From positions 508,896-572,895 of the forward strand of contig CAZTCI010000001.1 in assembly GCA_964612665.1 (NCBI GenBank): a stretch of 64,000 nucleotides of DNA, written 5' to 3'. The position numbers and the translations under genes are program-made. Of the stretch, positions 33,001 through 57,000 are shown in pieces. Position 1 is the first letter of the stretch. Each line of letters starts with the position of its first letter. The DNA comes from an uncultured Planctomycetales bacterium. GTDB taxonomy: Bacteria; Omnitrophota; Gorgyraeia; Zapsychrales; JAHFFX01. The notes under the pieces were generated by a model. It saw only the letters and a program-made list of their open reading frames with translations. It was not told where the DNA came from and searched no databases.

Positions 33001-36000
33001 ATACACAATTCCCTCAGCATAGAGATAATATTGGATTTGTGCATGGCTGTTATTAAAAATGCGGATATCATCAACCGAAAGATAATGCGGCCCATCAGGA
33101 TGATTGTGCAGGTCCAAATAAACGAGGGGATAATCTGGATTTAGTTCCGGACCGACGGAATCCTTATCGCCTTTGACGATACTGTAAAGGTCCCCTTCCA
33201 AGGATTGATGGGAAACTTCAAAAGGTAAATATCCAGAGGCGACGGTGTAAAAACGATCAATCGCGCGCCAGAACTCCGGCGTCCCGACGGCCGCGGCAAA
33301 TGGTCGAGCGCTGTAGCGTGTTCCTTCCTTCGCACTAATAATATCCTGCTTTATCTGATCGAGCGTCATGACTGGCCGACGCTGGATCCGGGAGATAAAC
33401 TTCCGACGGATGAATTCCTGGGCTTCCAGTTCATGGACGGCCATACCGATTATCGCGACCGCCGTCAGGCCGAGCAGGCTAAGCCAATCGGTATAGGCGG
33501 AAAGTTTTTCCACCTTCCCAACCCCGGAGGTTGGGGAGGATAATAATTTTTGGCTAAGATCTGCAGCCACATCCAAGTTTTCCAACACTTTCGTCGCATC
33601 TTTAGAACTTTTAATAAAGACAACCGCCTGAGAAACCGCCGCCGATATTGTTTCTATTTCGCCGATCATCGGAAAACTTCTCTTCCAAATAGCAAACTGG
33701 TGATTCCACGCAGCCAAACGCAGTTTGATGGCCAGATACCTCTTATCGGCCCATAACTCCTTCACTTGATCTCGGGCATGGACCATCGACGGGATTCGGT
33801 CCAAGGACAGGAGCAATCTTTCCTGATTTTCCCGTCGTTGTGCTTCCTGAAGTTCCCGTAATTCTTTTCTAATTTGCTGTAGTTCTTTTAAACTATGGAA
33901 CAATTGCTCAGTGGACGGGCCTTTAAGGACCGTCCGCGACATAGCTGCTGCCATTGCCCCCATCCCAGCAGAGAGCAATATCTTTCCGACGGGGATTCCA
34001 AACCATAACGCGGTCCCCCCATCTACACCTACGAGGTAAAGATGGATCCCCACTCCATACAACGCCAGTGCAATCATGACGGATGGAAATATGGCGAAAA
34101 GTTTTTCCACCTTCCCAACCCCGGGGGTTGGGGAGGATCTGAGGATCACCGCCAGCATTTCAATTAGTCCAACCAATCCCTTAAACACAATCCAAATCCA
34201 CACGGCTTCGATCGTGACGGCGGAGACGTTCTCGATGGGATTGTGATCGAATTCTTCTAGCGCATCGATTTTTCCGTATAAATATTGGGCCAAATGGCGG
34301 ATATCTTTTCGATAGTCGTGCGTCTTAACCAAATCCCAGAGGTTCAATTGTTCCCATTGATCGCCGGCAGCTTCGAGAGCTGCTTGGATTATCTTTAACC
34401 ATTCCTTCGCATAGAATTCTCGATGACGGAAATTGGACGCCACAATCCAGTGCAGTAATTCTTCTTCGGAAGATGTCTTCAACATCTCAATCGCGGCCCG
34501 GCGTTTGGCTGGCGAAGTGACCACCAAATCATTCATCCGCAAATGCTCGTTGAGAATGTGCTTCAGGCGCCGAGTCCTGGCAGAATTCGCCAAGCTGGTT
34601 TTATTTGTGAAGTCATCAAGAGAATTGAACGGATTGTTTAGCTTGCGAACCATCACCACAAATTCGGTCTGCGTCATTGTAAATCCACTCAAAAGAAAAT
34701 CCACCTCATCAGCGTAATTAAGGAAATATAGAATTTGTTTTTTGGTGTTTTTCGGGTGCTTCTGCAATTCTCGACGATGTTGCTCCGCATTTTCTTTCTT
34801 CTCTTTTCGTCTTTCGTTCTCTTTCTCTAAATCCGCCCGTGCCCTTTCACGAGGATTCTGAAATAGAATCTCTCGACGGTTTTCGGACGTTCGTTCCCAC
34901 GACATCGCAAAGACAAAGATATATGCCAGCAACATCCACGGACTGAACAGATAAGTACGAACTCCGGAATGATGGACGATTTGTTTCTGTGGAGTTTCTT
35001 CTTTAGTTGACAAGCCAACTTTCAGGGCTTGGGCGCGGCTGGCGGAGAGGTAAATCAACCGTTGAACAAACATGCCCGCGATCATCAGCACCGTAAAGAC
35101 ACTCATTCCCGTCGATAAATCGATCGTCACGGCGCGGTGTTTTTCGATATCAGAAGAACGACTTGGTGTTTTATCTTGTGCATTCAACCTGCGGGGTTGA
35201 ATGGACATCCTGTTCCCCTTCACACCTCCGAGGCGCGAAAGAGCATTATTTCTTAGCTTTTTACGAATACTTATAATTTTTAACACTGAACGAATATGCC
35301 ATTCTCTTAGCCCCAACCGCTCTTCCCGGATTTCTAATCTATCCCCAGGATATTTTTCAAAATCTGCAGTCACAATTTCGATAAGCCGTTCCCTTTTTTC
35401 TAGCTTTTCTCTTAAACGCACTCCCGCGGCTTTCTGCTTTAAGAACGTTAAATCATAATCCGGCCATATTTTGCTAATAATGTAATTCGACACTTGTTCA
35501 ATGTATTGATGCGATGATCCCATCTGTTCGACAATGATGCTTGATGATTGATCCAAAGCTATTTTGCGGACTAACACTTCTTTTTGCGGGAGCGTTAGTC
35601 CATACCTATCTCCTATATCGTTAAGGGTCCTTACAAGTCCTTCTTTAGTGATGGCATAGCCACTACTCTCCATAATGTCGCGAGCAAAACTTACTCTATT
35701 ACCATGCTCCATCGCTGTCTCCTGAGACGATAGAGAAGATCGGTATTCCTGGATCCCTTTTTGGCGATCTCGGTTTCGCGCATATGTATTTCGTTCGCCT
35801 CGAATTTTTAAATTAATTCCATTAACGACATATGTCAATAAGCCTACGCCATTGCGCCGATCAAATTTGATCACACTGCTGCGAATAGTTTTAATGAAGT
35901 CATCTGTTCTTTCCTTTAGGAAGGATCTATTCCATCTCTGTTTAACTAAGGGCATTTCTGTCAGACCGGCGATGAGGACTTCCATCGCCAAACCATCTTT

Positions 36001-39000
36001 CTTATCTTGAATAAGGTCAATTAAACGGCTCTGTTGCTCACGGCTTAAATATCCTCTGGAATGACGTGGCATGCCCAAGATCGTATTGACAGCGGCTTCA
36101 TCTCTTTGCTGAGGAGCCCAAATAATTTTAAGTTTAGACTCTTTAATAACCGGCACAGGAGGATTCAGCCCGTACCATTTCTTCATTTCATAAAGAATTT
36201 CTACTGAGCTTTTTCCTTTTAGATCGTGATTTTTTGCCCAGTTCAGCAGAAGCCCCTCTAAACATTTTCCTCCAAACCCTGGAATACCTGTATGAATAAT
36301 ATCGCCCACTTTTAAATCTACTATCTTCCCTGCACGGCGATGATTGGCTAGATGTTGAAGGATCGCCCATTGCAACCGCTCTTCAAGTTTGTCCCAGGAG
36401 AATTTCCTCGCCCGTCGGAATTGATCCAATACCGTTTCCAATTCTTCAAGGGTTACTGGTTTTTCTTCTGCCATCGTCATAAGAACAGCAGATGCGCAGA
36501 GGACTGCTATCCACGCTTCCGCACCTACGAGGTGCTGATGGGTAACCATGGCGACGAAAGCGGCGGAAATGATGATAAAGCGGAAGACTCCGTCGAGGAA
36601 ATCATTCAGTCGGCTGGGTTGAACAAATACAATTCGACGCAAAATGGAATTCACATTGTCTTGGCCGACATACGCAAGCGCCGCCGCAATTCCTACCAGA
36701 ACAAAAATCCATAAGGATGGACCAACGGCCATCAGTTTTATCTCTCGATCCCAAAACTGACTTGGCCCACACCGGCGGACAACAAATTTCTTTTCCAAAT
36801 CCTCTTTGACCGTCGTCACATCTTCTTGGACGATCGCGTCCGCCACACGTAAAGAAAATCCCATTTGCAGGGCCTGACGGCCGGGCATGGATGGGCTATA
36901 TCTCAAGCGAAGCCCCTGAATCAACGCGCGATAGGGCGCTTCCTGTCCCCGGAGAAACTTAAGGAAGGCAAACTGTTTGATTTCTTTGGTGGATACGGAG
37001 GTTTCAATATTATTTCTAAGATACGCTAAAAATTCTTTGTAATAACTGACCCAGTGCTCAAGGATTCTTTCCAGCCCCAACTCATTTAATTGTTTGTTCA
37101 AACGATTTGTGTTCCCAAAGACCAAATCTGTCGGTTTAAATTTATCAAATGTATCGGAGGTAATAGGACTCAATAAACAGCGCTCATTTAACGTTGATAC
37201 ACTGAGCTCATGCTTTTCGCCCCCGATTCTGACCCACCGCCCCAATCCCCGTCGGGCCAGGGCAATGAGATATTCGGGTTCGATATCAAATTGATCTTTC
37301 CCTTGATAATAAACGTGAATGTCCAGGTCCTTGATCATGGACCACAATGGGATTTGATTTTCGCTAAAAAGATAGGTCGAGGAGCCGGTGACCGTGATGA
37401 TCGGAGCCTCCACAATGGATAACGTAGCGACTTGCTTTAGAAGTTCGATTAAATCGACCGGCGGTAAAGCTGGATTGTCTGGCTGAACAATAAACTGGCG
37501 CTCAGGACGATAGTAGGAAATGTGTTCATCTTGGTCCACGATCAAAACAGGCCAATGCACTGTTTGGACCGCCGCCAGTAATATCAGCGCGTAGACCGCC
37601 TCGTTCAAACCGATCAGATCTCCGTGGGCCAAAAGACCGGATAAAGCCGCGAGGATGGCGATAGGGCGGAAGAGTTGTGCGATCAACCTGCGGGAGTGAA
37701 CAGACTTGATAAAGCGGAAAATTCCGTCGAGGAATAACATCACCCTCTCCGACGGCGGCGAAGTCTTGAGAAATTCGTAAAACGCGCGGAGGTTTTCAAG
37801 GATGACGCGGGATTTGGAGATTAGAACAGCGGCCATCAAAACAATAATGAGAATTTCCGCGAGGTGAAACACATTATTCGACGAAAAATTTGATTTTCTC
37901 GTCGGTCTTATCCGTGCAGTCGAAAGGAAATCGATTCGATGGGCGTTCAACGTCGCGGCATCTAATAATTCAAACCCTGGGAATGTTTGATCGACGATAT
38001 GTTTAATCAAATCCGCCAACTGATCCGCAGGGATTTTGATTAGATATCCTGGAATTCGGTGCATCTGCTGAGGACTAATTTCCCTCATCTCTTCTGCAGT
38101 CAAAAATTGAACCGCGGCCATCGATACAACCCGGCCTTCTAATCTGTTGACAGTCCATTTTCGCGACATTATACTTTGAATCGAAAAGGAGATAGATTGA
38201 TGACTTCTCTTCAAGATGCTATGAAAATCATTAAACCGCTTCAAAACCGTTTCAAGAAAAGCCATAAGTCCAGAAGAAAAACGAAGATTGCCGACGATCT
38301 TTTGGGTGCGTTCAAAGGTGCGACCGAAGGTAAATCTTCCAGTCAATGTGTTCGAGAATTGAGAAATTCTTCTTATGGTAAGTTTAAATAACCCTTCCTT
38401 GCTCTTGGACTCCGATGTCCTTGTCAGCTGGTTGACGCTCGAAGAAGATATTCTTACCCATAAAAAGCTCTGGGAAGCTCCCCACAAAATAATGACAATG
38501 GTTGAGGAAAATTCTTCTCTCGGTTGTTCAACGATTATCAATCTTATGGAAATCAGGTTTGTGTTGCGTGCTAAGAAGAAATTCAGTGAGCATAAGATTA
38601 CATCTTCTCTTAATAAACTCTCCGAGATTCTGAAGCTATTCATTCCAGATGAAATCAACCTATTAAAGGCGAATGAACTCCAGTCCAAATATCTTTCATT
38701 ATCGCCAACCGACGCTATCCTTCTGTCTGTGGCCACAACCCTAGACAATGTTGTCCTAATCACCCGCGATCGAGAATTATTGAAAGCTGCCTCAAAAATT
38801 GTCTCCGCATCAACTCCTGAAGAATTTCTGGCGAAACGCTGATCTCTTCTGTTCCAATAAAAATTCCCCACCAGCATTGCAATTAGCCCAACCACTCCCT
38901 TAAACACAATCCAAATAAAGCGGAAAATTCCGTCGAGGAATAACATCATCATCTTCGACGGCGGTGAGGTTTTAAGAAGTTCGTAGAACGCGCGGAGGTT

Positions 39001-42000
39001 TTCGAGGATGACGCGGGATTTGGATAGCAGAACAGCGGCAACCAAAATAATGATTAGAATTTCCGCGAAGTTAAAGGAGTTATTCGTTGGAGAATTCGAT
39101 TTACCCGTCGATCTCGTGGCGAGAGCTCTGCTGTCCTGAGATCTTCTTTCTGTGGTGACGAAAGTTCCTACCCTTCTTAAAATTTTGATAACTCTATCCC
39201 TTCCCTGAAGGTTATTAGAACTCTGTCGAGATTGGGGTTGTTCAACGATCGGCAAAGTGACGAAAAAGCTGGCGCCCTGGCCCAACTCGCTCTCCACATC
39301 AATCTCTCCATTGTGCGCCGTAATAATGCTTTTCACAATGTAAAGTCCCTGGCCGGTCCCGTCTTTTCCTTTCGTCGTGAAATATGGCTCGAAGATTTTA
39401 GAGACCAGCTCGGGCGCGATCCCGGGGCCATTGTCTTTCACCTCGAATTGCACGAGGGGCGCATTGTCGATTGGCGTGACGATCAACTCAATCTTTCCGT
39501 CTGGTATCTGCGCTAAGGTATACACCGCATTCTTTAGGAGATTGATAAACGCATGCGTCATCTGAATTTGTTCGACATCGATTCTAATCCCGGCGGCAGC
39601 GGAAAAATCAATCTGAAGTTGCTGTGGATCGAAGAGAGCGAAGATCTCTTCAAAATGTCCTCTAAGATTAGTCAAGAATTCCTCGACGGAAATGACTTTC
39701 TTCTTACCTTTCCCGGAATAACTGAGATAAAAATCAATGATTATTTTAAGCCGGTGGGTAACGCTGTGGAGGGTTTTGAGGACTTCACGCTTGGCTTTAG
39801 GCTCAACGATACCTTGATCGATATTTTTGTCTTGCGGATGCTGGCGGAAATCTTTGACGAGCTGCTTCCAGGCGCGATGAAACTTTTTCAGTTCAGGTAA
39901 ATCATCGAGAAGGATTTGCAACGCCAACATAATTAACCTTTCGCGCTGTTCTTGTGTAAACGGTTGGGCATAATTTTCAAGCACCTGTTGTAATGCCGGA
40001 TTGAATAACCCACCTATTGGCCTTTTCTCTCTTAAAGATAAGGTTGTTCTGTCATGCTCGGGGAGAAAAGGCCTAATACTAGACTTTTGCAATGCAAAAG
40101 TCAGTAATAACTCCGCTCGCTGTTCTCCTGTAAGCAGCTCAGCATATTTTTCAAGCATCGCCCGTTTTAATTCTGGGTTTGATAATGACTGAATATCGAC
40201 ATAAGGTTGATCAGATGCGGCATGGTTGCGAAGAATCTTCAAATCATTAATTTTCTCGAGAAGATTTAAATCCATAATATTCTCACTCAAAGATTGCATA
40301 GCGGATTTGAATGGTTCCGGCAAAATATCGGCATTACCGTTTGCCGGATCAAAGAATAAAGTAATCACGGTCAAATCATTGCCGATTTCATGCAGGAAGA
40401 CCGGCCCCAAATCAGCGATGATCCCCTGCCAATAATCTTCTTTTGGTATCCGCATTACCATAACGACAACCATCGATAGTCCCAGCAGCCAATTGAACGG
40501 CATAATGTATACGGCGTTTCTCTCGGTTGGGAGCTTCATAAATACATATTCCCTTCTGGCCACTGTCTGAATTTCAAGACCAAGCGGCTTTCGGTTTAAC
40601 GTTTTGAGCATTTGGGTGATAAAGTTTATCCGCCGCAAAACTGATGTGATCGGCATGCTGCTGCCATCACCCAACGTCGTCCCTGGTTTTTCTTCCAGCA
40701 GCATCTCCATGGTCTGCCCAATAACTGTCAAGGCCCCGGACAGATTTATGACGACGGGCCCGTCTGTAATAGAATTTCTAAACGCCGTCCCCATCACATT
40801 GCTTTTCCGCACTAAAGCGATCAAATCCTTGGCCTTTGGTGTCGTATCATTGCCAAACACAGGGTCGGATTCTGCCTCCTGCTTGACGTTTAGCATTGCT
40901 TCCAAAATCAATCTTGCGGACTCGCGTGCCCGTGTCGGATCTCCTAACGCTTCGCGTTGGCCATTAACAAATTTAACGAACTTAACCAGCTCCGTGCGCA
41001 GAGCCTTAATCCATTGCGGCCATTCTAGGTAATAAAATAATTGTTCCAGGACTGCCATAATAAGGAGCGTGCGTTCTCCGACGGGTTGGATTGGATTTCT
41101 AGATATTTGTTCTTCTTTCTGTTCAATGTCTAGAATCAAATGCCAGACTGGCTCTACAAATGCTTTCCTCTCAAGCAAGCCCCTTGTATATTTGAAGAAA
41201 TCATTCTGAGATTCATGATGACGCAATACTCGACGGGCAGCCAAACGGGCCATGGGATATTTCATGGAGCCGATTAAATCAGTCAACGTAAGATAATTTT
41301 TTACAAAGCTGCGCAATCCTGGCTCTTCAATCAATCCTTTAAACTCAATCAGCTCGGAAATAAAACGGAAATAGAAAACAAACCGTTCTCCGCCGGCCTT
41401 ATAAAGGATCCGTTTCCTTCCCGTGGCGGAAATAGGCCTATCATTTAAAACTTCGATCAGCCAAGCAGCGATCAAAAGTCTTAATGCCTCCATGTCCTCA
41501 TCCTCAACCGGCCCACTTAAAATCCACGCGCGTTTTTCGTCGGTGGAAAGGGCCAGGAGATTATCGAGACCAGTATACTGGCCGCGCACCGCCATCAAAA
41601 ATACCGGAGCGCTCAGCAACATCAAAGACATTCCCATCCATAAAACGGTTTTGATGGCGAGTATAACCAACATCAATCCGCCCACGGCGCCGACCAAGGC
41701 GATGGAATGCAATTTCTCCTCGAGCTGCGCGATTTTATTTTCTATTCCATTTGTCTTTTCAGATTCTTGGTCTTTCTTCCCGTTTCCATTCAATTCAGTG
41801 GAATACGCTGTCAGAGTGAATAATTCTTTTAAGTCCTCTTCCCATTGCTTATGAAAAGGAAGGCTCTCTGCATATTCCTGGAAGAGACCTGCGCGCAGCT
41901 GACGCCACACCATATGGTCGAGCAAGACCTGACCATTGATGACAAATGCCTGCGCAAAGTGTCTTAATTCCTCGACGTAGGCCGGATATTTCTGTGAGAT

Positions 42001-45000
42001 CTTTTGTAAAGAAGACAATTCCTCGGATAGAGAATCTTTCTTAAGCAAAGCATCCACGTATTGTTCAATCTGTTGGCTTTTAGCATAGTCATGGTCTTGC
42101 GATAAACGGATACGTTCTTCAATACGATCCGTGGCTGTTTCAAAAGCAATGATCCAATCGGCATCAGAACCGGAGAATTCCGAGACATAGCTTGATACCC
42201 TGGACTTTAATAAAAGCCTGTGCGTCGTCCCGGCCTCACCGTTACGGGCGATACGGGCCATGATTTGTCGCATATCACGTTTGGAAAAAAGAACGTTGTA
42301 AAGAACAGCCACAACGCCGGAGGCAACATTGGTCAAAATATTCACCCCTCGGCCTCCCATGGGACTGGTAATAAGAATCGTAATCTGTAAGCGGCCTTTC
42401 TGGTTAATAACATAACCGGCCTTTTCAAATTGACCGGCTTCTTCCCTGCGCTTTTCAGGATTTTGATCGATCCCTAAAACAGTCTCAATCTTGATATCAT
42501 TGTTGGGCCGGCCTCTTTCCAAGATGGCGTTTAATAGTTCCTTGACATGATGGGCCGAAGCGATATCTTCCGTCGCGATAAAAACCGGCCTTCCTGACAA
42601 TAAAGCATTCATAACAATTTCGATTAAGCTTTGGTCCATCTCTTCCACGGTCTCATATCCGATGGAGGAATGATCAACCCGGATGGATTTGATATCGGAG
42701 GGTTGAACATACACTTGCATGTTCAATCTTTTCTTTAAATGCTGTTCAATCGTCGGACTCATCTCTGAACCACTGACCGCGGCATAGCCATGTCTATACA
42801 ACTTTAAAAGGGAGTGATACGTCAAGGCCGCCAAAAGCCGGCGCGGATTCTTTTCATTGTCGATACCGGAACGCGCTTCTATCATACGTTGTACCTCGGG
42901 AGAATAAACACGCAAAATGTCCGGGCGTTTACTATCGTCGGGAATAGGCAATACATTTTCACGTTTAGCATCTAAACAAAAATCATGATCCTCTTTAAGG
43001 TTCCAGCCAATCACCGCAAAGTCCGCCAGCTGACGCAAATGCGCATCAGAGATTTCATCTAATTCCCGACGATTTCTAAGAAATTCCATAATCTTCCGCG
43101 GGTCACGCCAAACCACTTGTCTTCCCTGATCGGAAGAAATAATCTCTTCGGGATTCGTAGCCCAATCTTTCAACAAAAAGAAGACGTCCTTATCAAAACG
43201 ATGCCACGCTGTATAGGCTGCGATAATTCTCTTCACTAATTCTTTATCCTTACCGTTGACGATGATGTCGATCGACAGAGTATTCAAGACGGAGAAGATA
43301 TCCCAAAGATAATAATCCGCCTCATCCAATAAAGCCCGACGATCAATGGTCAATGGTTGTTCTAAACTTTTTCTGGTCGAAATTTCTCGCGCCAGGGCTG
43401 TTAAAGAAATATATCGGATCTGTGCTTTGCCGGCTTCAGCCCAGAGAGAGGAACCAAAAAATCTAGTGAACCTTTTTGACTGGCCCGGAATAAGTAGTGT
43501 ACGGGACCCTTCGGTGATGCAGCTTACGGAATGCCCCAAAGAAGCCAAAATCCCGGCCTGACTGTTAAAGCCGTCTTGGGCCAAATGATCTGTCGTGGTG
43601 ACGATATCCGTTGATACACCCATTTTCTCCAGAGCATCGGCCGCCATCGACAAGGCCATGGTTTTTCCGGCGCTGGTATCAAACTTGACAAAATATCCCC
43701 GCGATCCGTCTTCGGTCCTCGGTTGCATCAAGAGTTCAGCAGTTTTAAGTTGTGCGGGGCGGCGTTGATACTTAATCATAATATTCTTATCAGCCATCCT
43801 TCGACGCGCAATGACCTCAAATTCCTCTAATGATTCCCTAATTACGTCGGGAAAATATTCGCTCAAGGATAAAGGCAGATCGGTCCACGCCACGCCATTT
43901 TGTATCGATGTTTTAATAATTTCTTTTTGTTCACTGAATACGTTCAGTTGAGGGGTGGGAGTCTCGTCGATCTCCCCAATGATATTCGCGGGCGTAGATA
44001 AAGATTCCATCTGAAGTCTTTCTGCCTCCTCTTCCAACGGCGAAACTTTTTCCGGACGCTGGAACTCAAACGACATCTCGGGTTCAGGAGGCTGAAAAGC
44101 AATTCCAAAATAATGGGCGAGATGATGGACTGACTTAAAGAATCTTTCCATTGATATCTCAAATCTTCCTTGTTCATAATTCTTCACTGACGACTGGCTT
44201 AATTGTAGAATTTCGGCAAATTGAGTTTGAGATAAGTCCAGCTCCTTACGAAGATGGGTTAAATTCAAGAGATATTTTTTCAGTAAAGCATTCTGTTGGC
44301 TGTTTGGAGAGGATTTCGCTTCTTGTTGAACATCATTGATGAATTCTTTCACTTCCGTCGGGACCTCACTGGAAACATTGTCCATTAAGAAATCTATAAC
44401 CTTCTTCATTGACTTTGCGCTAAGTTTCCATGCCTTGGCAGAACTTGCGTGATCTACAATATATTTTTGCCCTCCCATCGACGCGATCATTGTCTCGACA
44501 GAGTATCTCTGCTTAAAACGATTTAGTAAATGCTTAATCGGCTCGCTCAATCTCTTAAAAATTTCGCGTCGTTCTTCTCTTGATGCACGCAAAGCTTGTG
44601 CATACAAAAGCTGTATCTGCTGCTTCCACTGCTTAATGTCTCGAGACCACTCACCAATGGGCTGAACATCCTCATTCTGCCCACCGAAAGTAGAGATGAT
44701 GATAGATTCATCGATGAGCTGAACATTCTCATTCTGCTCAAAAGCGATAGGAATCTCGTCCGCCTCTTGTAATGAAATCAAGCTAGAGATTGGCTTTTCT
44801 TCTTCAATGAACTGAGTATCCTCATTCTGCTTACCGATCAAACTTTCATCGACCTCAGGCAAAGTTAATTCAAAAGTCGTTTCTTCATCGCTTTCTGGAG
44901 TAAGGATGATGATAGATTCATCGATGAACTGAACATTCTCGTTCTGCTCAAAAGCGATAGGAATCTCGCCCATCTCCCCAATTCCATTCGTGGGCGGAGA

Positions 45001-48000
45001 TAAAGATTCCATCTGAGATATTTCCGCCTCCTCTTCCAACGGCGAGACTTTTCCCGGAAACTGGAACTCAAACTTCATCTCGGGCTCAGAAGGCTGAAAA
45101 GCAATTCCAAAATAATGGGCGAGATGATGGACTGATTGAAGAAATCTTTCCATTGGTATCCTAGATCTTCCCAGTTCATATTCCGACACTGACCACCGGC
45201 TTAATTTTAGAATTTCGGCAAATTGGGTTTGAGACAAGCCCAGCTTCTTACGAATGCGGGTTAAATCCGAAAAATATTTTTTCAGTAAAGCATTCTGTTG
45301 GCTGTTTGGAGAGGATTTCCCTTCTTGTTGAACATCATTGATGAATTCTTTCACTTCCCTTGGAACCTCACTGGAAACATTGTCCATTAAGAAATTGATG
45401 ACCTTCTCCATTGACTTTGCGCTAAGTGTCCCCGCATCGGCAGAACTTGCGCGATCTACGATATATTTTGTTACTCCCATCAACGCCATTTTCTCGACAG
45501 AGAATTCTTGCTTAAAGCGATCCAGTAAATGCTTAATGGGCTTGCTCAATCTCTTGCGTTGTTCTTCTCTCGACGCACGCAAAGCTTGGACATACAAAAG
45601 CTGCATCTGATGCTTCCACTCGTTAATGTCTTGAGACCACTCACCCATGGGCTGAACATCCTCTTCTTCTTTCCGTAGAATTTCTTCCGTCCGTTGGGAC
45701 TCAAACTTCGTTGCGGGCTCAGAAATCTGAAAAGAAATTATTGAAAACTTTTGAAAATAATTCTCCACAATTCTTTCTAATAACGGTGTTTCCTGCATCC
45801 TCCAAGGACGAATTGTTTTGCCTTTGTCCAAATCATTCTCATCGCGATGAGAAAACTTCGCCATCCCCAACATCACGCCCGCGAATCCCAGAAGATTAAT
45901 GAACGCGATGAAATCCATTGCATAAAAATGCGCCGTTCCGATCATGGCCAGGATGGATGCGATGATCTTTACAAAAATTCCGTTGATCATTGTAAACAGC
46001 ACCATCGCTCCCATAACGACCGACCAAACCACCCAACCACCGGCCACGTTGAGAAATACGATAGAAGACAATGTGCTTATCCCCGATGGGACCAATTCAA
46101 GTTGCTCTGGATTGGTTTGAGCAATATAAGATCTAAATATATATAGTTTCTCAAAGTAACTTTTATTTATGTCGGAAACGAGATAATCTAGACGATGATG
46201 ACTAATTCCCTTTAATCCTTCCAACCGTAACATCGCATTAACAAAATTCATGGCTAATGAATTATTGCCTTTGCGGAATAAAAACCATTGGCTCGATTCA
46301 TCGTGCCCAAAAGTGCCTAAATAGAAACCAAAAATGCGTTCAATACGACTATTGATATCCTTCTGTTGCTGACCGTCCTTGACCCATTCCCCCAGATGAT
46401 TCATCATCTTGAGAATCCGTCGATGAATATCCTCTTTGGATCTCGCTCTCAGTTCTCCTGCGACATTCAAGGCATAATCCTCACTTGGATAAAAGCGTTT
46501 TCCGTCCTTGCCTAACAGAAGAATGATATTAAAATTCTTAAGCCAAATTAAGAAATCTTGGGTCGTGGTTATACGGTCCGAGACGAAATTGAATAACAAA
46601 CGCAAAATCTCTCCTCGAACTTCGTGGGAATTAATCCAATAATTCCTCTGCTCATCCATCGACGGCCATATTGCTAAAGTCGAAGGATCCGGGTTTCTGA
46701 TCATTTCTTCTTTAGGTAGCTGTAAGGCATTTTCCCAATTCCAAGTCGGCATGGCCCGTTTGAACATCGCCAGTTCTTTTGTCGCCACATCAACAGAAAC
46801 ATCCCGGTCTTGCTGAAGAACCGGATCAAAAATCACAACAGTTGGATTTTCCGAAGTCCCCTTCACTGCCATCCTCACAGCACCCGCCATAACGATCGAT
46901 GCGATCCCCAGATAACCAATCATCGAATGCCCAAGCCAGGCAGCCGTCAATACCTCCAAAAGCCCGGTAATTCCGACGATAAGAACCCAGTGATACCACT
47001 TTGCTTGAGCCAATAGCTCATGGAAAAATTCCTTTGTGTCTTGAACGATGACCTTCCAACTCAGCCTGGTCCTCCATGCCCGTTTCCACTCCATGACCAA
47101 GATGAGGAATTGAATCAAAATAATCAGGCCTGTTACGATTGTGATGACAAGATCGGCCGTCGGTGAAAGTTCCTGTTGGGGCACCACATAGGCCGCCTCG
47201 GTCAAGCTTGGCAGAATCCCCTGCAAAAACAAAACGCCGGCAAGCACCAACAACAGCGCAATAGCCACGAATACGAAATCAAAAATTCCTGCTACCGTTA
47301 CCAGATCTCCAAATCTCTCAGAAAACTTCGAAGATAAAATCCGTGCATTCCAGCCAAACGGAGAAACGAGGCCTTCATCCCCTAGGTGGATTTCCGGTAA
47401 ACGTCTCAAATCCAAAATCAAATGATCCTGGCCAGCCACTTGGCGTTCTTTTATTTGGTAAATTCCTCTGAAAAAGTCATTGTTCCGTAAGAGAAGATAA
47501 TCAAATTGGGCGGCTAATGTTTTAAGGAAATTGTTTTCTGGTTTGAAGAAGTCCCGCGCTCGACGGTACATTCTTTGTTTGGCCTGCGTTTTGTTCAGTC
47601 CTTCATGTTTTTGATAATAGGCGCGCACGGCCTCGTGGTTATATCCGGCCATATGATAGACGCCGAGCTTAACGATCCTTTCGTTGAAATAAAGCTCAAG
47701 CGATACGAGACTTGACTCTTTAGATGATCCGAATAGATCAATCGAGACAAGATTTAAATTTTCATTAACCTCAATCTGTTGAACACCGTCCCAATCGTGA
47801 GTTAATTCCAAAACCCATTGCTTGAAGGATTCTGATAATTGATCATCATTAACAAATCGCATCGATGCCAGCGTCGAAGAATTTTGGTCCATCATTCCCG
47901 CGGTAACAAAAATCATCGCCCACAACACCCCGATTCCACCTACGAGGTGGAACGTGGTCCAAACGGCGATTAGGAAGGAAGGTATAACGGTGAAGCGGAA

Positions 48001-51000
48001 TAATTGATCGAACAGCGGCGCCGAAATCTTCGCCGGGACTTGGGTACGTTTGGCGGTATTTATAATCAACACAATAATGACAACCGCCAGCGCCAACATG
48101 GTAACAGCAAGAAATTTCTTATTTGTTGATTCAGGATTGCTTTTTTGGACCGATGGTAAGGATGTCCACGGCATTAAGACTCCATCGACTGAGAATCGCG
48201 CTGCCAAGGCTTCCGGCGACACGACGTAATTTTGCGGGAGAAATATATCCGCCAGAAAGTTCGGGTCTTTTTGACTTCGACCTTCTGCAGTTTCTACTCT
48301 GATCAGTAAAGAAAAGACATAAACCTGAAGAGGTATGACATTTATATCTGTCTTTGCGTCTTTCAAGACGGCTCCGATATGATGGAAACTAACAATCTTA
48401 TAAATTGTTTCATCATCAGAAAAAGCAGCCGTATCGTGGAGAACACCCGCCAACCATTCTCCATAACCGATACGCTTTTGAAGGTCCATGAGATGCTCGG
48501 ACCGGATGCCTCCAGCTTTCTCATATTTAATATCTTTGATATACCCTGCCCCTTCCATTCGCATAATTATAGCGGCCATCACTTTAATAAAGTCGCCAAA
48601 TAAAGTATGCGCCAAATCCTCCGACGGAATATCAGATACATTTCGAACACCTTTCTGAGCGTAATGTTCCAGTATGCTAAAAAAGGCCTTACGACCTTCT
48701 CTCAATGAGCGACCGAGATAAGGAAATTGAGTTAAATAATCGGCACCCGCCAGTTCCTTGACCAACATGCCAAGAAGAATCGTCTTTAAAATCTTGCTTT
48801 CTTCGCTCGAATCCTTTGTATAACGAATTAAAACAGGAATAATCCTCGGATTAATTAGAAAATCAAATTCAAGATATCCTTCACTGTTGATTGCGAATCC
48901 TTGATCTGTCATCTGGGGAACAATCGCGATGGGTGATTTGGAATCTCTGGGAAGAAAATCAAACTTACCGGTCATTCGCTTTAGGATTTCAGCCCAGCGC
49001 CGTTCGCGCTCATCGGAAGAATGAGCCCATTGAGCGGCTGTTGTCTGGAAAAATTGTCTAATAACCCGTTTAATTTCTTCGGGAGAATCAGGTAAAGATT
49101 CCTTTTCCTTGCGGGAAACAGCAGGAACGGAATTCGATGGTGCGGCAAATATGAGCGTTGATGTAAAGAGGAAATGAACGGCCGTCAGAAGAATCAAGAT
49201 CTTCTTAGAAATCGGCGGCGGTGAATTCTTCTGACGTTCAAAATAGCGTCGAAACTCGCTTAGACTCATCAATCCGCCGGCGAATCTTCTCCCAATAAAT
49301 ATAAGCATTACAACAACCACGCCCAGAATCGCATACCCATCTACACCCCGGAGGTGTAGATGGGTAACAGGATTTTTCTCTGACTCAAAATCACTTTCAG
49401 CAAAAGCACCTTCCAAAAGTGCGCCGACACGTTTCAGCCAAACATCAAAGTCAATCGCTTCATGCTGTGCCAACCACATAATGGCCTGCTCGAGCACTTT
49501 CACATGCCGAGGAAGTGCTTTTTGTTTCCAGGCCGGTAACGCGTTATAGGCCATGACATCCACTTGGACGCGGGCCGTTGTCCAATTTTCCTGTATGAGC
49601 AATGCGCGTACACTGCGCAAGACGTCTGCGCAATTTTCTATACCAATCGCATCAGTGAGAAATATGTCGATGTGCGTTGCATTCTCTTCTTGGGCTTCTA
49701 CCTTGGCCCATACATGAACAGCCGAAAGGTCGCGGTATTCAGCGACGACGGAATTCACCAGATCAATCAACGCGCTGCGGTCGTCGCGGTGCATGGTCAA
49801 TGCAATGTCCTGATTTTCCAAAACATCTTTGAGATGAAGCAGGAAGCTTACAACTTTATACGTGCCGGCCTGCGCAGCGAGTTCGATGCCTCTGGAGACA
49901 ATTTCCATGCGGACAACTGGATTGCGAAATTCAACAGCTGTCAGACCTAAAAGATCGTTGAGCGCAACAACGCTCGGTGATCTGTGAATCTCGTCGGATA
50001 ATTGATTCATAACAGTCAAGACACGATCCATTTCTTCTGTTTGAGCTTCGATAGCCGCTGACAAACCGTTAAGTATGTATAAAATCCAACGGAATTCTGG
50101 ATTATATTGCTTAGTCATCGCTGATACTATTGCCTTCGCCTGTCGAAGCGGCGCTCGAGCCAGATCTATTTGATCATTTGAATAGTGACTCCAGGCCAAG
50201 TACACGTAAGCAGCCACTTTTTGCGGTTCTAAAATATTTAATGATGTGATCGACGTCCAGCGTCTCACAGCTTCATCATATTCTTTTTGTTCAAAACTAA
50301 TTCTAGCCTGAGCGATTGCGGTCAAAGACAACACGCGGCCCTTTATGCCCAAATCGGAATACTGCTGGCTCCATGCTTTCAGAAGCCTGATTCTCTCGAC
50401 GGCAGATTCGAATTTCTGTTCCGTAATATCTATGATGATTCTGTAATAATTGGCCAGAATGTCCAACTCGATATAGCTAAAGTGGGGATGAAACTTCTGG
50501 GTCAGCATTGGCTGATAATGTGTCACATACCGATTGTTGATAGCGAGCGCCTGCACAAACGCTTGATTAGCTTCTACATAATGTTGCTGATCAAAATGAA
50601 TCATGCCTTTAAACAACGTAAACCATGCTTGTTCCAAGGAATCATCAGGGAATTTTTTGATCGCTTGATCGGCGGCCTGCAAAGCGGCTTCAAATTCTTC
50701 AAAAAGGGCCAAATGTAAGACCTTTCCAGTCAACTGCACAGACATGTCATCATCTTTTTCTGTCCTTTGTACCAAAACGCTCTGTTCCTGACGTGACAAC
50801 CATATCTCGACGGCATTTTGCACTTTCGCGACATCCAGGTTTTTCACTCTCGTCGCTTTCGAAAGAACAGCGCGTACCGTCGCTTCGTTTTGAATGCCAG
50901 CGACCAATGTTCTTAACTCCTGATCACTCGGCTGACCGCTTGGCAGATTCGGCAAAACATTCCGCAAGGCTCGACGCAGAGACGCATAATCTGTTTTGGG

Positions 51001-54000
51001 TCTGCCGGATGATATGGCCATGGCGAATATGAACATCAACAAGATAACCATCTCTAAAGACACAGGGTGGGCTTGCATCTGGTTGTTACCGTCGGCCAAT
51101 CGCATTGATCGGTTGTGTTGCGGATGTTTTGTTGCCAGGTTATTCTTTTGTGGACTGCCACTGACGACTTGTTCTGCCGCGATAAGACATTTCGTTCTGT
51201 CTTCTTTAGGTAGATACAAACACTTCACAACCAAATCAAGATACTGTCTGGCCAGCTCTGGATTATCAGAATTACTGCTCATTTGTCTAGTACGCTCGAG
51301 TACTATCCCCGCGAGAATGAGGGTTCCTTGTGGCCCTGTCCATAGAATGCGTCTGGCTTCCACGTTTTCTAATCTTTCTTCCGGTCGGAGAATTTGCCGC
51401 ACAAGAAAGCGGCCGGATTCAATCCAATCCAGCTCATCACGATTCCAGGCAATACTGCCATCCGCCGCCGCGTTCACGGCCCGGTAAGCGCGATTAAATG
51501 AGGTGTCTTTGCTATACCAAGGAATATTGCTCAAGATAATTGACCCGATGAAAAACACAACAACAGTCCTGCCGGTCATATTCAACAATCGTCTTATCGA
51601 TTCTCGCCATGACCATCCTAGCATCGTCGAGGGCCTCGCAAATTCCCGATGACTTTCGAAGTAATCAGAAAGCAGTAACCACACAACAAAAACCACAAAC
51701 AACCAAACACCATAGTGCTCAAAGAACGGCTGTATCAACTGTATATCGAAAAGATAATTCTTGTTTTCGACAACTTTGAAAATCTTCCAATCATGAGTTG
51801 AATAAGATCCTAAAGGATCTGTGCCGATAGACCCTTGGGCCACTTCTACCAATTGCCGTCGGGCTTTGTTAAGCAGTGTATTTAATTGATGCAGGTAGAC
51901 CTGAGTATCTTGCCATTCGATTGAAGATCTTTCTCCAGTTTGTTTATCGGTAACTTCCTCATAGTGCGTATACCATCCGACAATAAAATAACCGTTTAAT
52001 CTTAATATCCGCGCGATTGAATCAAGCATGCGTCTTTTAACGTCTTCCTTAATATAAGGACTCGAAAAAATGCTCATGGCAACGATTACAGCCACTGACT
52101 CTTTGCCTAACAAACTGTTTTCAAAATAAGCTTGAGCCCGTGGAAGGACCTGGAGTTTAGGCTCTCGGGCTGCACGGTTCTGCCAAATTTCATGGGAATT
52201 AATTTCTAGCGGATTGGCATCGGAATCATCGGAGGGTTGATAGATGATCAATTGATCGATGTGACAAAGAAGCATATCCTCCCATGGGATCTGATAAAAG
52301 TCTGACGGATTAGCGCTGGGTCCGATTGAAACCGCCCGCTCCCATCTGGATTTTTCAAGAGCGTTAATGGCGTTTCGCGCCCGCTGATAATACTCGGGGA
52401 CAAACCCGCTCGCCAAAAGTTCGCGTATACGAGTTCTCCTCTGCATTAGATCAATCCGCCTTTGCCGTCGAATTTCTTCCTGAAACTCTAAAATTGAACC
52501 TCGAGGATGTGCCCCTGTTATCCGTGCCCAAATATAATTCGCCCCAAGAACGAGGAAACCAAACACAATAATCAGGATTATTACTGCGGTTGAGTTATCA
52601 GGGATAACATTCTGCTGAATGAGAACATCCGTGATCGCTCCGGATGAGATGGCGCGATTAACTTGGGCGGTACGAGGAGAAGGAATCGGGATAATCTGCT
52701 CGCGCCATGCCATCAGCGGTTGATTAAACTCCACATTTGGATTTCGGAGTTGGACGGCTTCCCACATCATCTGTCTGATCTCTTCCTGCCTAAACTGACC
52801 ATCAAAATAATTATGTGAAATACCGTTGAGGTTATGAAGCCGCAATAAGGCGTTAACAAAATTCATAAATAAAGAGTTGTTACCTTTTATCATAAGGTTC
52901 ACGGCACGATTATTCAGATGTCTAGAAGAACCGATATATCCATTGATAATAAAATCAACGATTTCAGCCAATCTCAAATCGGAGGCTTCCGGAGTTAAAA
53001 TAGGAATGAAACGTTGCCAGATGGCTGCCGATAGTTGTAGAGAGAATTCTTTGGGATAACGTGTTGTTCCGGCGACGAAGCGGATGGAGCGTTCGTCCCG
53101 CTTTTGGGCGCCGATCATGGTGGGGGTGATGTAGTATGAATCGCCCAGTCCGATGATAACAATTTTGTTCAAGTACCGGAACCATTGCAGAATGTCTTCT
53201 GGACTGCCGATTGTTCCTTCGTTTTGTGCCAGAATCATCTTTAGAATTTCTGGCCTTACAGTTTTCTGATTTTTCCAGTAATTTTCTTGGTTGGGTGTTT
53301 CGGGCCTAATTTGACGTTCAGGAAGTCGAATAACTTCGTTCCAAGGCACCTCCAAGGCCTTTGTAAAATTAAAATAAGGGAATGCTTCTTGGAATCTCTT
53401 CGCCAGATTTTCATGGTCTTCTGCAGAATCCCCCGCAACACTACCGACGGCAACCGCCAATGCCGCTGCCCAAACCCAAGCGCCGGACAATCCGGCCGTC
53501 CATAACTTAATCAGTGCCATGATTACAGCAGTCACGGCAACCGGCCCTGCGCGAAGTTTGATTGTCAGGACGATAATCGCCAGAATAACGAGGAATCCGC
53601 CGATGAGATACGCCGATGATTCTTCTTTTTTGCTTGAAGTATTTTGAACGAGACTCGAAATCGATTGTGCCTTCTCTTCTTCCGCTTCCTTGCGCAAGCG
53701 TTGCCACATCCTTCGAGTTTGTGTTTGAAATCTGGGAGTTTGAACTCGTCGATATAATTTATTCAAAATATATTTGGCTTCCGATGATAACTGATGAGAT
53801 TGCTGCACCAACTCCCCTTGACGCAGGTTCAGCACATACTGCAAATCTTCTTCTCCTAATAAAAATGCAAAACGCAATTCTTGCAATAAAACATGCGGGT
53901 GGGCATGCATTTCTTCATAGTACCGTGACAGTAATCTCATTCTAGCCGCTCTTCCTCTTGACCAAGAAGGATTGAACACCTCATTCCAAATATTTCTAAA

Positions 54001-57000
54001 CGAATCAGAAATAATTTCTCTCCACGTTGTGCGATACGATAACTCCAGAATTCCGTTTCCGCGATAGCGCGTGTGATCGTAAACCATCTCAAATAGCTCA
54101 TGGACAAATGCAGCCTTGTCCCTATTGGGCGACGTCGGTTTGGGTTTCTGGTAATAGAATTGTCCCGATCTGAGGAATTGATTTTTGAGCGCAACCCAGA
54201 CTTGGCCTCCCTCAGTCACATAAAACATGTCACTCAAAAATGCGTACTCGGGTCCTTCCAAAAGAATGGCCCCTAACGTTTGGCCGAATTCATCGAAGCT
54301 CATCGCCTTGATCTCGTTGATCGTGCCCAGCCGCGCAATACGCAGCCAGGCCTGGTGAATCAAACGATCATCGTGGCGTTTCATTGGCCGATAATCTCTA
54401 AAGTACCAAAACAATAGCTGTGTCACGGATATCGCCAGAATATTAACGGAGAAAGGATAATTTTTAATTTCTTCCATAAGCAACGAAGCCATCGTCATGA
54501 TGATCGTCGGCGCGGTTAGGTGCGTCACACCCACTACGACGATGATGATAAGAATCGCTATCGAACAAACCCATAACATTCCATGCAGTTCCTGCTCGGA
54601 GGAATTTGTTTGAACCTTCTTCGCATTGGCGTTGAATTGTTTTCCAAACACCTTCTCCTGCGCCTCTTGAGCAGAAACTTTGTCGGCGCGCAGATTAATA
54701 TATTCGAGCGCGAGATCTATTTGATGACCACTCAATTCCCACGCGATGCCGGCGAGGATCAGGCCGTAGGCTTCTTCGTGATTTTCGATATCGTTCAGCA
54801 CCTTCTTAATGACGGCTTCCCGTTGATCCACATCTCTGATTCCCGCCAAGGTCATGGCGGTCTCAATTAACTCACGGTCTTCTTCCGGTTCGATTGTGTT
54901 CAATCCATCAATGGCCATCCATTGCACATATGTACGGGCATGCTTGTAGGGATCCGTGATCTCCTGCGCCCAGGAGACTTTGCTAGACAACACAAAGGTA
55001 GCAATTAGAAGTAGCAATTCTCGACGATGAAATGCAGATCTATTTTTTGTGCTGATAGAAGATGTATTCGTGATTGTAGTTGATCGGGTGTAAGATTTGA
55101 GGAGCCAAAGAAGAAGGACAATCAGCAGGAGATCAATACCTAACGAAACTATCCAGACTTTTTGTTTTAATAAATCTTCAAAATCCGAAAGACCATCATC
55201 TTCCTCATCAATTTCTAAATTATTCTTACTTCTCGCCATCGAGATCATACTCATCGTTTGGTTAAACAATACCTCTGATCTCCGCTCTTCCTCTTCTTTC
55301 TGTGTCAAAACTTTGGGCCGCAGTTGCTGCTGTTCGGCGATCGCCATTAATGTTCCAAAATAAATCGGATAAAGTGAAGATGATTCTCTAAGAATCAGCA
55401 TGCCGTGACCATCATGGAATTCTCTATTTTTGAGCTGCTGAATCTGACTTAATGTTGCCAGGGCATTCATCGCTTGAACAGTGAACGGCTCATCGTATTC
55501 AATCGCCTGTTGAACAAATTCTGCCTTCAAAATTGGACTGTCAGCGTACGCATGAGGATTCGGTAAAATGATCTCAACTTGGATATTACTTTCTGCATCC
55601 TGATAAATAAATCGTGTGGCTCCATCCACTATCTCCTGAGTTAACTGATCAAACCTGATGTCATGACGCAGATTTTCTGTCGTATAAATCATGACATCGT
55701 TATAAAGGGTGAGGACGGCTCTTGAGATTTGACTGAGCGCATAACGGCCCCCAATGTCATCCATTTCAAGATCAGACCCATCCAGAACTTGAGTTTCATC
55801 CGCATCAGATCGTGGAGCATTAAATTCAGCGATTAGACTTTCTATTCCAAACTTTACCATTCCGAAAATTTCATCCAAATCCGCCTGACGAACTTTCACA
55901 TCAAATTGGCGTCCTGAAGAATATATACTTGAGGCTCTTTTTAAAAAGTAATCGATAAACTCTTGCTTATCAACTCCTGTATTTAAATCTTCAAAATTTT
56001 CTTTCCTATTAAGAAATACTTCCCAGCTGTCTTTAATAAAAGAATTCATCTTCTTGATTAATGAAGGTAAGGTCAATGTAGAGCTTGACCATATTTGGTG
56101 AGGATAAAATTCCGTATTGAAAAATTCTTTCCGATAATCATTCAAATATTGATTTAAAACAGGGACACTTAAAACGAGGCCATTGCCACCTAAGACTTTG
56201 CGCAAAATATCATGGATAATCCGCCCGCCGTTATTTTCTCCCATTTTTATAAAATAAATGTCTCTAAAGGTCGGCGGTACATTGTGGTTTGTGTAATTCA
56301 TATTCATCAGTGTCAACAAGGCACGAACTCTAGAGATTGTTTCTGCGCGACTTTGATTTTTTTCTAGCGCCGGTAAAAATCTGCTGGCGAGGTTCGGATA
56401 ATTCATGATTCCATCAAAAGAACGTTTACCAGCAATGGACACTTGAAATGCAAAATGTTCACTGGTCATAATCATCTTTCGAATTGCGTATCCCTTGACG
56501 AACCAATTTTGTTCAATCAGTTCTTCTCGAGCCGGAACATAAACAATTAACATCTCAATGATCAGTTCAGCCATGGCCAAATTCTGTTCAAACAAAGCAT
56601 CCTGTTCTGGATACATCCGACGGGATAGAATGACAGTATGTTGCAGCGCTGAAAGAATTCTAACGGCCGGCCAATGATCGATGCTAAGCAATGCGGTTCT
56701 CAATTGCCTGACCTCCTCGATCAAATTAGACAGATAAGACATTTTTGAAATTTCTGGATATTCTCCGACAATCGCTTCCAACTCCTGAAGAAGCGGCTCG
56801 ATGAATTCCGGGATAACATAATACCGTTCGTAGGTCGGTTTATTCTTCGTCCGCGTTAGAGTCACCATCCGTTTCTCTTGCTGGCGCTGTCGCTGTCTTA
56901 AATGATTCACGATCGGACCGTAGTCATTTTGAATTCCTTTAAAACGAGAGACCGTTTTGGATGAAAGGGGCGTCGTCGTTTCTAAGGTCACGACAGCGTC

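Follow-up and report, generated by a model that had tools for sequence, protein, structure and literature searches.

The DNA analyzed here, a 64,000-nucleotide stretch of contig CAZTCI010000001.1 (the window), is read from end to end by one giant minus-strand open reading frame (ORF), which contains two adjacent, similar units, each with an XRE-type helix-turn-helix (HTH). Because the frame leaves the window at both ends, the gene is longer than 64 kb; the longest competitor in a scan of all other frames is no more than 325 codons. The giant frame has the top codon-usage score in 423 of 424 segments of 450 nt, and the sole exception is an antisense cassette with a PIN domain, described below. 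Over the duplication the coding signature is normal (z -0.6 to +2.0) and codon usage is native. There is no competing ORF on either strand across this region, no enrichment of promoter-like or terminator-like sites in or near it, and no Rfam family or tRNA within the 64-kb window. From the N- to the C-terminus, on the minus strand, the order is a transmembrane-like cluster, a partial tail, copy A of the duplicated core, a linker, copy B and a SecA-like ATPase region (Table 1).

When the segment from 43 to 47 kb is compared with the window, blastn pairs positions 43958-44678 and 44960-45667 in an alignment of 721 columns that is 85.9% identical and has 89 mismatches and 3 gap openings (839 bits, E = 0). 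A codon-guided alignment of 711 nt contains 94 differences (59 transitions and 35 transversions; 86.8% identity), and at the protein level the two copies are 75-76% identical (E = 1e-110). The original prediction of two consecutive similar units inside the giant ORF is thus borne out, in frame, and the self-comparison it had proposed as a check gives off-diagonal similarity both by blastn and in a repeat search. The predicted unit length of about 1 kb matches the period, but the repeated core is only ~720 nt of a ~330-codon unit and the remainder is a 279-nt acidic linker. In the repeat search the start-to-start spacing changes along the unit from 1002 to 999 to 990 nt, and the indels are therefore 3 and 9 nt, in frame. 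Tandem Repeats Finder reports no repeat at the duplication because its maximum period is 500. A hidden Markov model (HMM) of the unit, run over the giant protein, finds copies A and B only, plus the partial tail. The locus is most probably a genuine in-frame tandem segmental duplication within a giant, membrane-anchored, multi-domain gene of more than 64 kb.

Each unit consists of an acidic boundary motif (QNEDVQxIxEW), ~130 orphan helical residues, the XRE-type HTH and a tail (YFGIAFQPxEPEMxFEFQ...EEEAE). An HTH_XRE motif had been anticipated in each unit, and both copies score above the Pfam gathering cut-offs for HTH_3 (PF01381, 23 bits) and HTH_19 (30.2 bits). The unit profile aligns to lambda-repressor-like, PezA and HigA HTH structures, only over unit positions 133-192 (best E = 2e-4). 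Helix 2 of the HTH (SQTQFAEIL) is identical in copies A and B, whereas 5 of the 12 residues of the recognition helix differ (SRWSVSEYELGR vs SQSSVKNYEQGR). Phage_int_SAM_4, IraP and ENTH were considered as families of the unit and rejected; these weak Pfam matches are below cut-off when the copies are scored singly, and IraP vanishes. The other HTH domains of the giant protein were likewise rejected as older copies of the unit, since the unit HMM and hhalign show generic HTH likeness only.

The linker between the cores matches no Pfam family. Within it the tail-plus-acidic segment is present a second time, in partly diverged form; in the alignment this segment occurs four times: before copy A, after copy A, again within the linker and after copy B. 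Two sub-repeat copies lie 210 nt apart, with blastn pairing 44689-44761 and 44899-44971 at 93%. The nested sub-repeat previously described as 65 bp therefore exists, but its actual size is 73-78 nt and it is joined by a 33-nt motif in five copies. Similarly, the two acidic peptides assigned one to each unit are both present in the minus-strand translation, but both instances of EIPIAFEQNENVQ(F/L)IDESIII fall in the inter-core linker. In the 21,333 aa the peptide motif (Q/E)(N/E)E(D/N)(V/T)Q is found at five places, all in the duplication region, and the first residues of both cores are among them.

The age of the duplication and the selection acting since can be read from the differences between the copies. 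By the Nei-Gojobori method, the 237-codon core has dS 0.21 and dN 0.13; with flanks the values are dS 0.26, dN 0.17 and omega 0.67, and overall omega is ~0.6-0.67. Differences fall almost evenly on codon positions 1, 2 and 3 (39, 40 and 46), and nonsynonymous codon differences outnumber synonymous ones 56 to 19 (2.95:1, with a neutral expectation of 3.24:1). Amino-acid change since the duplication is close to the neutral rate. For 94 neutral substitutions the probability of producing no stop codon is 0.013, and neither a stop nor a frameshift has arisen. Because all indels are multiples of three and no stop is present, the reading frame has been kept by selection while the protein drifted almost freely. 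Presumably this strictness reflects the cost of a stop, which would cut off 14,652 downstream codons within the window, plus whatever lies past it; frame upkeep therefore need not mean that the module itself matters. Constraint varies along the unit, with omega at 0.17-0.30 for unit residues ~90-135 (VIxFLMDNVSSEVPxEVKEFINDVQQExKSSPNSQQNALLKKY). Neither copy is visibly decaying, as the HTH scores are equal in both. The duplication had been called recent, which is true relative to the gene's other internal repeats; with dS at 0.21-0.26 and 13% of sites differing, it is moderately old and an ordinary mode of growth.

An alternative to drift under relaxed constraint is that one HTH gained a new binding specificity through positive selection on its recognition helix. 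The contrast between the unchanged helix 2 and the altered recognition helix would fit, as would a sliding-window omega of 1.25 over the recognition-helix part and the full Pfam scores retained by both copies. However, the counts are tiny and an omega above 1 is not significant here, the tail, outside the HTH, also has omega ~0.65-0.9, and the overall nonsynonymous to synonymous ratio is near neutral. We regard positive selection as an unlikely account, and near-neutral drift within a preserved frame as the better one.

It is less likely still that the duplication is much older and that its 86% identity has been upheld by ongoing gene conversion (concerted evolution), a process that had been raised together with recent duplication. 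One 120-nt stretch contains just 4 differences (scan statistic p = 0.003 under shuffling), identical runs of 45-46 nt could seed recombination, and short patches of high identity also link other paralogous segments of the gene. In that most conserved stretch, however, synonymous differences are not depleted (2/38 vs 17/143 elsewhere, p = 0.37), and its conservation is thus explained by constraint at the protein level. Differences are scattered over the entire unit and the longest-run and window-variance tests are unremarkable (p ~0.1), so there is no gene-conversion signal between the copies and no positive evidence for the earlier suggestion.

An assembly artefact, in which a single-copy segment is represented twice, end to end, by divergent alleles or strain variants, is very improbable. 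The source is probably a metagenome assembly, and collapsed multi-copy assembly is one of two candidate causes of inflated marker counts on some Omnitrophota contigs (bioRxiv 10.64898/2026.06.07.730766). Against this, the join is not clean, having a 279-nt in-frame linker with its own sub-repeats and a partial third tail upstream; the frame is unbroken throughout, the indels being 3 and 9 nt; the 13% divergence, in which some three in four codon changes are nonsynonymous, lies well outside usual strain variation; and the same gene contains several further internal repeats of graded age. Nor does the locus make the hotspot for assembly collapse that had been expected: the longest identical run between the copies is 46 nt, and because of this and the ~13% divergence, collapse or false expansion by current assemblers is unlikely.

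Separate capture of the two modules from related stand-alone HTH genes, such as an antitoxin or a regulator, would suit an ORF rich in stand-alone-type domains, with one foreign cassette demonstrably inserted elsewhere and weak matches to the antitoxin-type HTH families Xre-like-HTH and MqsA. It is nevertheless the least credible of these alternatives, because the likeness spans the whole 237-241-residue unit including orphan part and tail in the same order and frame, the copies lie side by side and have in common boundary motifs that occur at no other place, codon usage is native, and 1.84 billion representatives include no stand-alone relative of the unit.

For duplication in place, we propose unequal recombination or replication slippage between short boundary-motif copies flanking the unit, because boundary motifs and tail segments flank the cores as such events would leave them. 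A later, smaller duplication of 210 nt, involving the tail-plus-acidic segment, would then have occurred in the linker.

The surroundings of the units suggest where they might act. Around the transmembrane-like cluster there are 5 Lys/Arg in the 20 residues after it and 1 before. This bias, together with the HTH, SecA-like, kinase-type and receiver domain types, suggests that the following loop is cytoplasmic. The SecA-like region directly C-terminal of copy B lies in the same inter-transmembrane loop and is divergent. Its Pfam scores are below cut-off (SecA_DEAD 22.9 bits, cut-off 24.6; P-loop_SecA 19.6 bits, cut-off 27), but among structures it matches 22 SecA chains (best E = 1.6e-8) over SecA residues 327-539; no match to the C-terminal parts of SecA is seen among these structure matches. 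SecA_DEAD is borne by the related fragment P0002. The modules may therefore be parts of the giant protein that bind nucleic acid or a partner in the cytoplasm, possibly docking units beside a SecA-like motor, and the duplication would have added a second unit with a now-different recognition helix.

Relatives of the unit were sought widely. With aa 6087-7286 as the query, HMMER run exhaustively over 1.84 billion representatives gave 103 matches (best E = 5e-12), all to the bare HTH or the SecA-like part and none to the whole unit. The orphan ~130 residues have no relatives among those representatives or in the PDB. A word-indexed protein search with aa 6050-7000 gave no match at E <= 1e-5. Scans of GTDB genomes with the two-copy alignment and an exact 37-mer, scans of JGI metagenomes with the 37-mer and a degenerate pattern for EFINDVQQE, and an IMG/VR search gave no match to the unit. 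Foldseek of the orphan part against the PDB returned generic helical bundles only, all with E above 1.

Several points weigh against this picture of the gene and its modules. Translation of the giant ORF is predicted from its sequence, and the cytoplasmic location is probable, with a crude charge count and domain types as its basis. An AlphaFold2 model built from a two-sequence alignment has a mean pLDDT of 54, with only residues ~11-104 at 63-86 and helical; the HTH part is below 50. No orthologue or second strain was found in GTDB, JGI metagenomes, IMG/VR or the protein searches. DNA binding by the HTH modules is putative, and they may instead contact protein: XRE-fold domains can mediate protein contacts, as RodZ does with MreB. 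The proposed mechanism of formation, finally, is deduced from the positions of the motifs only.

Table 1. Features of the duplication, of the giant reading frame that contains it and of the antisense cassette. Amino-acid positions refer to the giant protein.
Feature	Position (nt)	Strand	Position (aa)	Evidence and remarks
Giant ORF	1..64000	-		21,333 codons without stop, open at both window ends
Copy A of duplicated core (orphan helical region, XRE-type HTH, tail)	44959..45669	-	6111-6347	blastn, repeat and protein self-comparison, Pfam
Copy B of duplicated core	43957..44679	-	6441-6681	blastn, repeat and protein self-comparison, Pfam
XRE-type HTH of copy A	45103..45261	-	~6247-6299	Pfam HTH_3 34.7 bits, HTH_19 30.9 bits
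XRE-type HTH of copy B	44101..44259	-	6581-6633	Pfam HTH_3 34.3 bits, HTH_19 32.3 bits
Acidic linker between cores	44680..44958	-	6348-6440	93 residues, 279 nt; 24 Asp/Glu vs 2 Lys/Arg
78-nt sub-repeat, copy 1, encoding GEIPIAFEQNENVQFIDESIII	44899..44976	-		repeat search 91%; blastn 93% over 73 nt
78-nt sub-repeat, copy 2, encoding DEIPIAFEQNENVQLIDESIII	44689..44766	-		repeat search, blastn
33-nt degenerate boundary motif ((Q/E)(N/E)E(D/N)(V/T)Q x I), at start of copy B	44655..44687	-		repeat search
Other four boundary-motif copies	44712-44744, 44805-44837, 44922-44954, 45645-45677 (last at start of copy A)	-		repeat search
Partial third copy of unit tail, just N-terminal of copy A	45695..45739	-	~6084-6113	blastn vs 45062-45106, 84% over 45 nt; unit HMM i-E 0.012 (weak)
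Hydrophobic, transmembrane-like cluster, N-terminal of duplication	45862..46077	-	~5975-6046	hydropathy
Divergent SecA-like ATPase region	42211..43704	-	~6766-7263	profile matches
HTH_3		-	~1382	Pfam
TPR		-	~4464-4623	Pfam
HATPase_c		-	8144-8251	Pfam
Sigma70_r4_2		-	10631-10671	Pfam
HTH_3		-	~11687	Pfam
DAO / NAD_binding_8		-	~14504	Pfam
HTH_31 / HTH_3		-	~15571	Pfam
GerE		-	16805-16850	Pfam
Transketolase / PDH-E1		-	~18014-18743	Pfam
Methyltransf_11		-	~19942	Pfam
Response_reg		-	~21041	Pfam
25-codon acidic sub-repeat				dS 0.07; self-comparison
HTH module (copies A/B)				dS 0.21; self-comparison
Transmembrane hairpin pair			8296-8362 / 8698-8764	dS 0.44; self-comparison
Repeat pair			13683-13724 / 14054-14095	dS 0.8; self-comparison
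Several further pairs				28-39% amino-acid identity, saturated; self-comparison
PIN toxin-antitoxin-like operon, antisense within giant frame	38147..38842	+		Pfam, promoter-like site, conserved ORFs
PIN ORF, full-length domain, ~155 residues	38375..38842	+		PF01850 36.4 bits, cut-off 23.6
Promoter-like site TTGACA-17-TATACT	38147..38175	+		motif match, 11/12 positions
Direct repeat around cassette, window	37709-37908 / 38915-39114			200 nt, spacing 1206
Direct repeat around cassette, locus L008				89 nt, spacing 1023
Direct repeat around cassette, locus L010				88 nt, spacing 1089
Direct repeat around cassette, locus L011				31 nt, spacing 834

The giant protein outside the duplication contains many domains of types usual in stand-alone genes, identified as in-frame Pfam matches and including enzyme, signaling and DNA-binding domains. 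Kyte-Doolittle analysis gives 88 overlapping 19-residue peaks with a mean of at least 1.8, from which we estimate by eye ~60-70 separate hydrophobic, transmembrane-like segments, a crude count not made with TMHMM. The pyruvate dehydrogenase E1/transketolase-like enzyme in the frame (window ~7600-10152, minus strand; aa 17950-18800) has as its best relative, at 47% identity, a stand-alone gene of 1,428 aa in GCA_964583975.1. Its best named relative, at 42% identity, is a Candidatus Omnitrophota metagenome-assembled genome fragment that fills a whole 3.6-kb contig and also has a faint methyltransferase match, echoing the domain order of the giant frame. An antisense ORF of 307 codons (window 20245-21168, plus strand) is long for the base composition and has no family match; it is probably a by-product of the coding strand, since codon usage there favors the giant frame.

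Self-comparison of the giant protein reveals other repeats of graded age, from the acidic sub-repeat to saturated pairs, in keeping with the idea that the gene grows by module duplication. Detectable internal paralogy nevertheless covers only 14.6% of the 21,333 residues and ~85% is non-repetitive, and duplication is therefore one contributor to gene size, not the main visible one; the remaining unique sequence looks like accretion of unrelated domains.

Four consecutive XRE-type HTH repeats of ~55 residues lie at window ~17140-17802 (minus strand; aa 15400-15620; HTH_31 75.7 bits), with neighboring units 78% identical over 65 nt at best. This array is an older, independent tandem amplification in the same gene, only generically related to the unit. 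Elsewhere, short patches of 37-52 nt with 89-96% nucleotide identity (33496-33541 / 34093-34138, 34146-34197 / 38865-38916 and 32654-32690 / 34079-34115) join distant, otherwise diverged transmembrane-hairpin modules with the motif W..I.KG..G, and one abuts the direct repeat of the PIN cassette. These patches may be micro-conversion tracts or a constrained motif.

The one interval in which the giant frame is not the top codon-usage frame contains an operon resembling a PIN toxin-antitoxin system, encoded antisense within the giant frame. Over the cassette the codon-usage score is 8.6 for the giant frame and 21.2 for the antisense frame, the giant-frame mean being 39.3 (SD 8.7, 424 segments). 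Besides the promoter-like site, there is a Shine-Dalgarno sequence (AAGGAG) 8 nt ahead of an ATG at 38200 (plus strand) and a conserved 63-residue ORF upstream that overlaps the PIN start by 17 nt and has no match to known antitoxin families. Every acidic residue that is conserved across the alignment of PIN homologues is present in the window's copy, and the operon is apparently intact. VapBC-type (PIN domain) type II operons share the small upstream gene overlapping a ~155-residue PIN gene, the promoter-like site, the Shine-Dalgarno sequence and the acidic residues; here, however, the cassette is antisense inside a stop-free giant frame, as in six related loci, and its partner resembles no known antitoxin family.

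Full-length homologues of the PIN ORF reach 66% identity, and we examined the loci of eight PIN homologues, excluding the DNA of P0224. Six independent loci with PINs at least 50% identical (L007, L008/L009, L010, L011/L012, L014 and L015) each have a stop-free antisense frame. These frames span the entire contig (303-978 codons), always in the window's phase, in which third codon positions of the two strands coincide. A 46% identical homologue has this arrangement in part only, and a 43% identical one is an ordinary MazE-PIN pair in a normal gene neighborhood. Homology between loci is limited to the ~0.69-kb cassette, and the flanks and their long frames are unrelated. At four loci the cassette lies between direct repeats of the host, with spacings that are all multiples of three. 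Tyr, His and Gln, whose codons are those able to create antisense stops in the cassette's phase, make up 3.3% of residues in embedded PINs vs 5.7% in more distant homologues (p = 0.017). From these sequence features, the cassette looks like a toxin-antitoxin lineage adapted to life inside long translated frames without breaking them. This antisense cassette is more surprising and weightier than the duplication; neither antisense nor nested genes are mentioned in the main texts of two papers on giant genes (West-Roberts et al. 2023; Nielsen and Lui 2026).

The long antisense frame of L007 has internal direct repeats of its own (91-154 / 1666-1729 and 1413-1597 / 1710-1894, 78-81%, with a recurring SSPVRGW(K/R)ER peptide), for which reason internal duplication seems common in frames that host the cassette. 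In the window, a direct repeat of a transmembrane hairpin (21737-21839 / 22850-22952; 81%, spacing 1113 nt, a multiple of three) resembles the flanks of the PIN cassette in its geometry; its interval contains no recognizable gene or PIN remnant on either strand. Further PIN remnants between other direct-repeat pairs of the window were looked for and none was found.

Two routes of growth could thus operate in this gene. The first would be in-frame tandem duplication of modules followed by near-neutral drift with the frame strictly kept, the four-HTH array being a second case. The second would be the insertion, in frame, of foreign cassettes whose antisense strand allows read-through, as for the PIN operon at 38147-38842. 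A tentative generalization, which we consider slightly less likely than not, is that the giant frame acts as a harbor that keeps any added DNA as long as the frame stays open, growing both by duplication and by insertion of antisense-readable cassettes from a cassette subfamily with a stop-free antisense frame.

The gene appears to fit the membrane-anchored, SecA-domain-bearing giant proteins of Omnitrophota, the presumed taxon of the source. The 'Archaeovorin'-type giants have numerous transmembrane regions, HATPase_c, TPR and divergent SecA domains without scaffold and wing (West-Roberts et al. 2023, bioRxiv 10.1101/2023.11.21.568195), and a 'multi-enzyme / TM-only' class has numerous transmembrane regions with methyltransferase, HATPase_c and receiver domains (Nielsen and Lui 2026, bioRxiv 10.64898/2026.06.07.730766). 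In common with these giants, the present gene has a frame of at least 21,333 codons (predicted proteins of this class are longer than 10,000-30,000 aa), dozens of transmembrane-like segments, a region resembling a divergent SecA ATPase, and the domains HATPase_c, Methyltransf_11, Response_reg and TPR, which rank with the most frequent domains of those catalogues. It differs in that HEAT repeats, glycosyltransferases, NUDIX and C39 peptidase were not detected in this 64-kb part, and no collection searched contains a close relative of the window sequence. XRE-type HTH, sigma-type and GerE domains are all present in the giant frame, whereas in searches by term HTH (XRE) is unmentioned in the main texts of both papers and 'sigma' and 'DNA-binding' are also absent from that of 2023; GerE was not among the terms searched.

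With respect to the XRE/Cro-C1 family (HTH_3), both copies pass the curated threshold and align to lambda-repressor-like and PezA-type structures, but these HTHs lie in the middle of a giant membrane protein, after ~130 orphan residues and before an acidic tail, and not in a small soluble repressor or antitoxin. The multi-HTH proteins P0001 and P0005, with 5 and 8 HTH_3 domains, share tandem amplification of HTH_3, as does the array at aa 15400-15620; their repeat, however, is a bare HTH of ~55-70 residues, while here the repeat is ~330 residues and the HTH one fifth of it. Lengthening by in-frame tandem module duplication is also shared with tandem-repeat scaffolds in giant surface proteins, examples being the TSP3/dockerin arrays of Omnitrophota giants and, in large adhesins, Ig-like arrays. 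In contrast to such surface scaffolds, there are only two copies here, at 86% identity, and the module is of a regulatory or cytoplasmic type, not extracellular. The two-copy in-frame duplication is a known kind of event in giant genes: one or more Pfam domains are repeated in 65% of the long proteins catalogued by Nielsen and Lui 2026 (bioRxiv 10.64898/2026.06.07.730766). The same study concludes that recent tandem expansion at the nucleotide level is not the general pattern. Mildly new are the comparative youth of this duplication, seen at the nucleotide level in a gene of the non-repetitive class, and the clear picture of frame-only selection after it.

The question of how giant genes of bacteria originate and grow longer is acknowledged to be open (West-Roberts et al. 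2023, bioRxiv 10.1101/2023.11.21.568195). The locus provides a dated module duplication (dS ~0.2) in a giant gene of the non-repetitive class and shows its aftermath, with the frame kept and the protein near-neutral. In practical terms, a repeat at 86% identity is not an assembly hazard, and tools that count domains or markers will register duplicated HTH content. If the reading given above is true, the antisense cassette would be a live operon, promoter-like site included, nested in a giant gene that is itself translated, and would come from a cassette subfamily that evolved a permanently stop-free antisense frame. If the cassette is transcribed, it would be a functional nested operon and a second, previously undescribed route of giant-gene growth.

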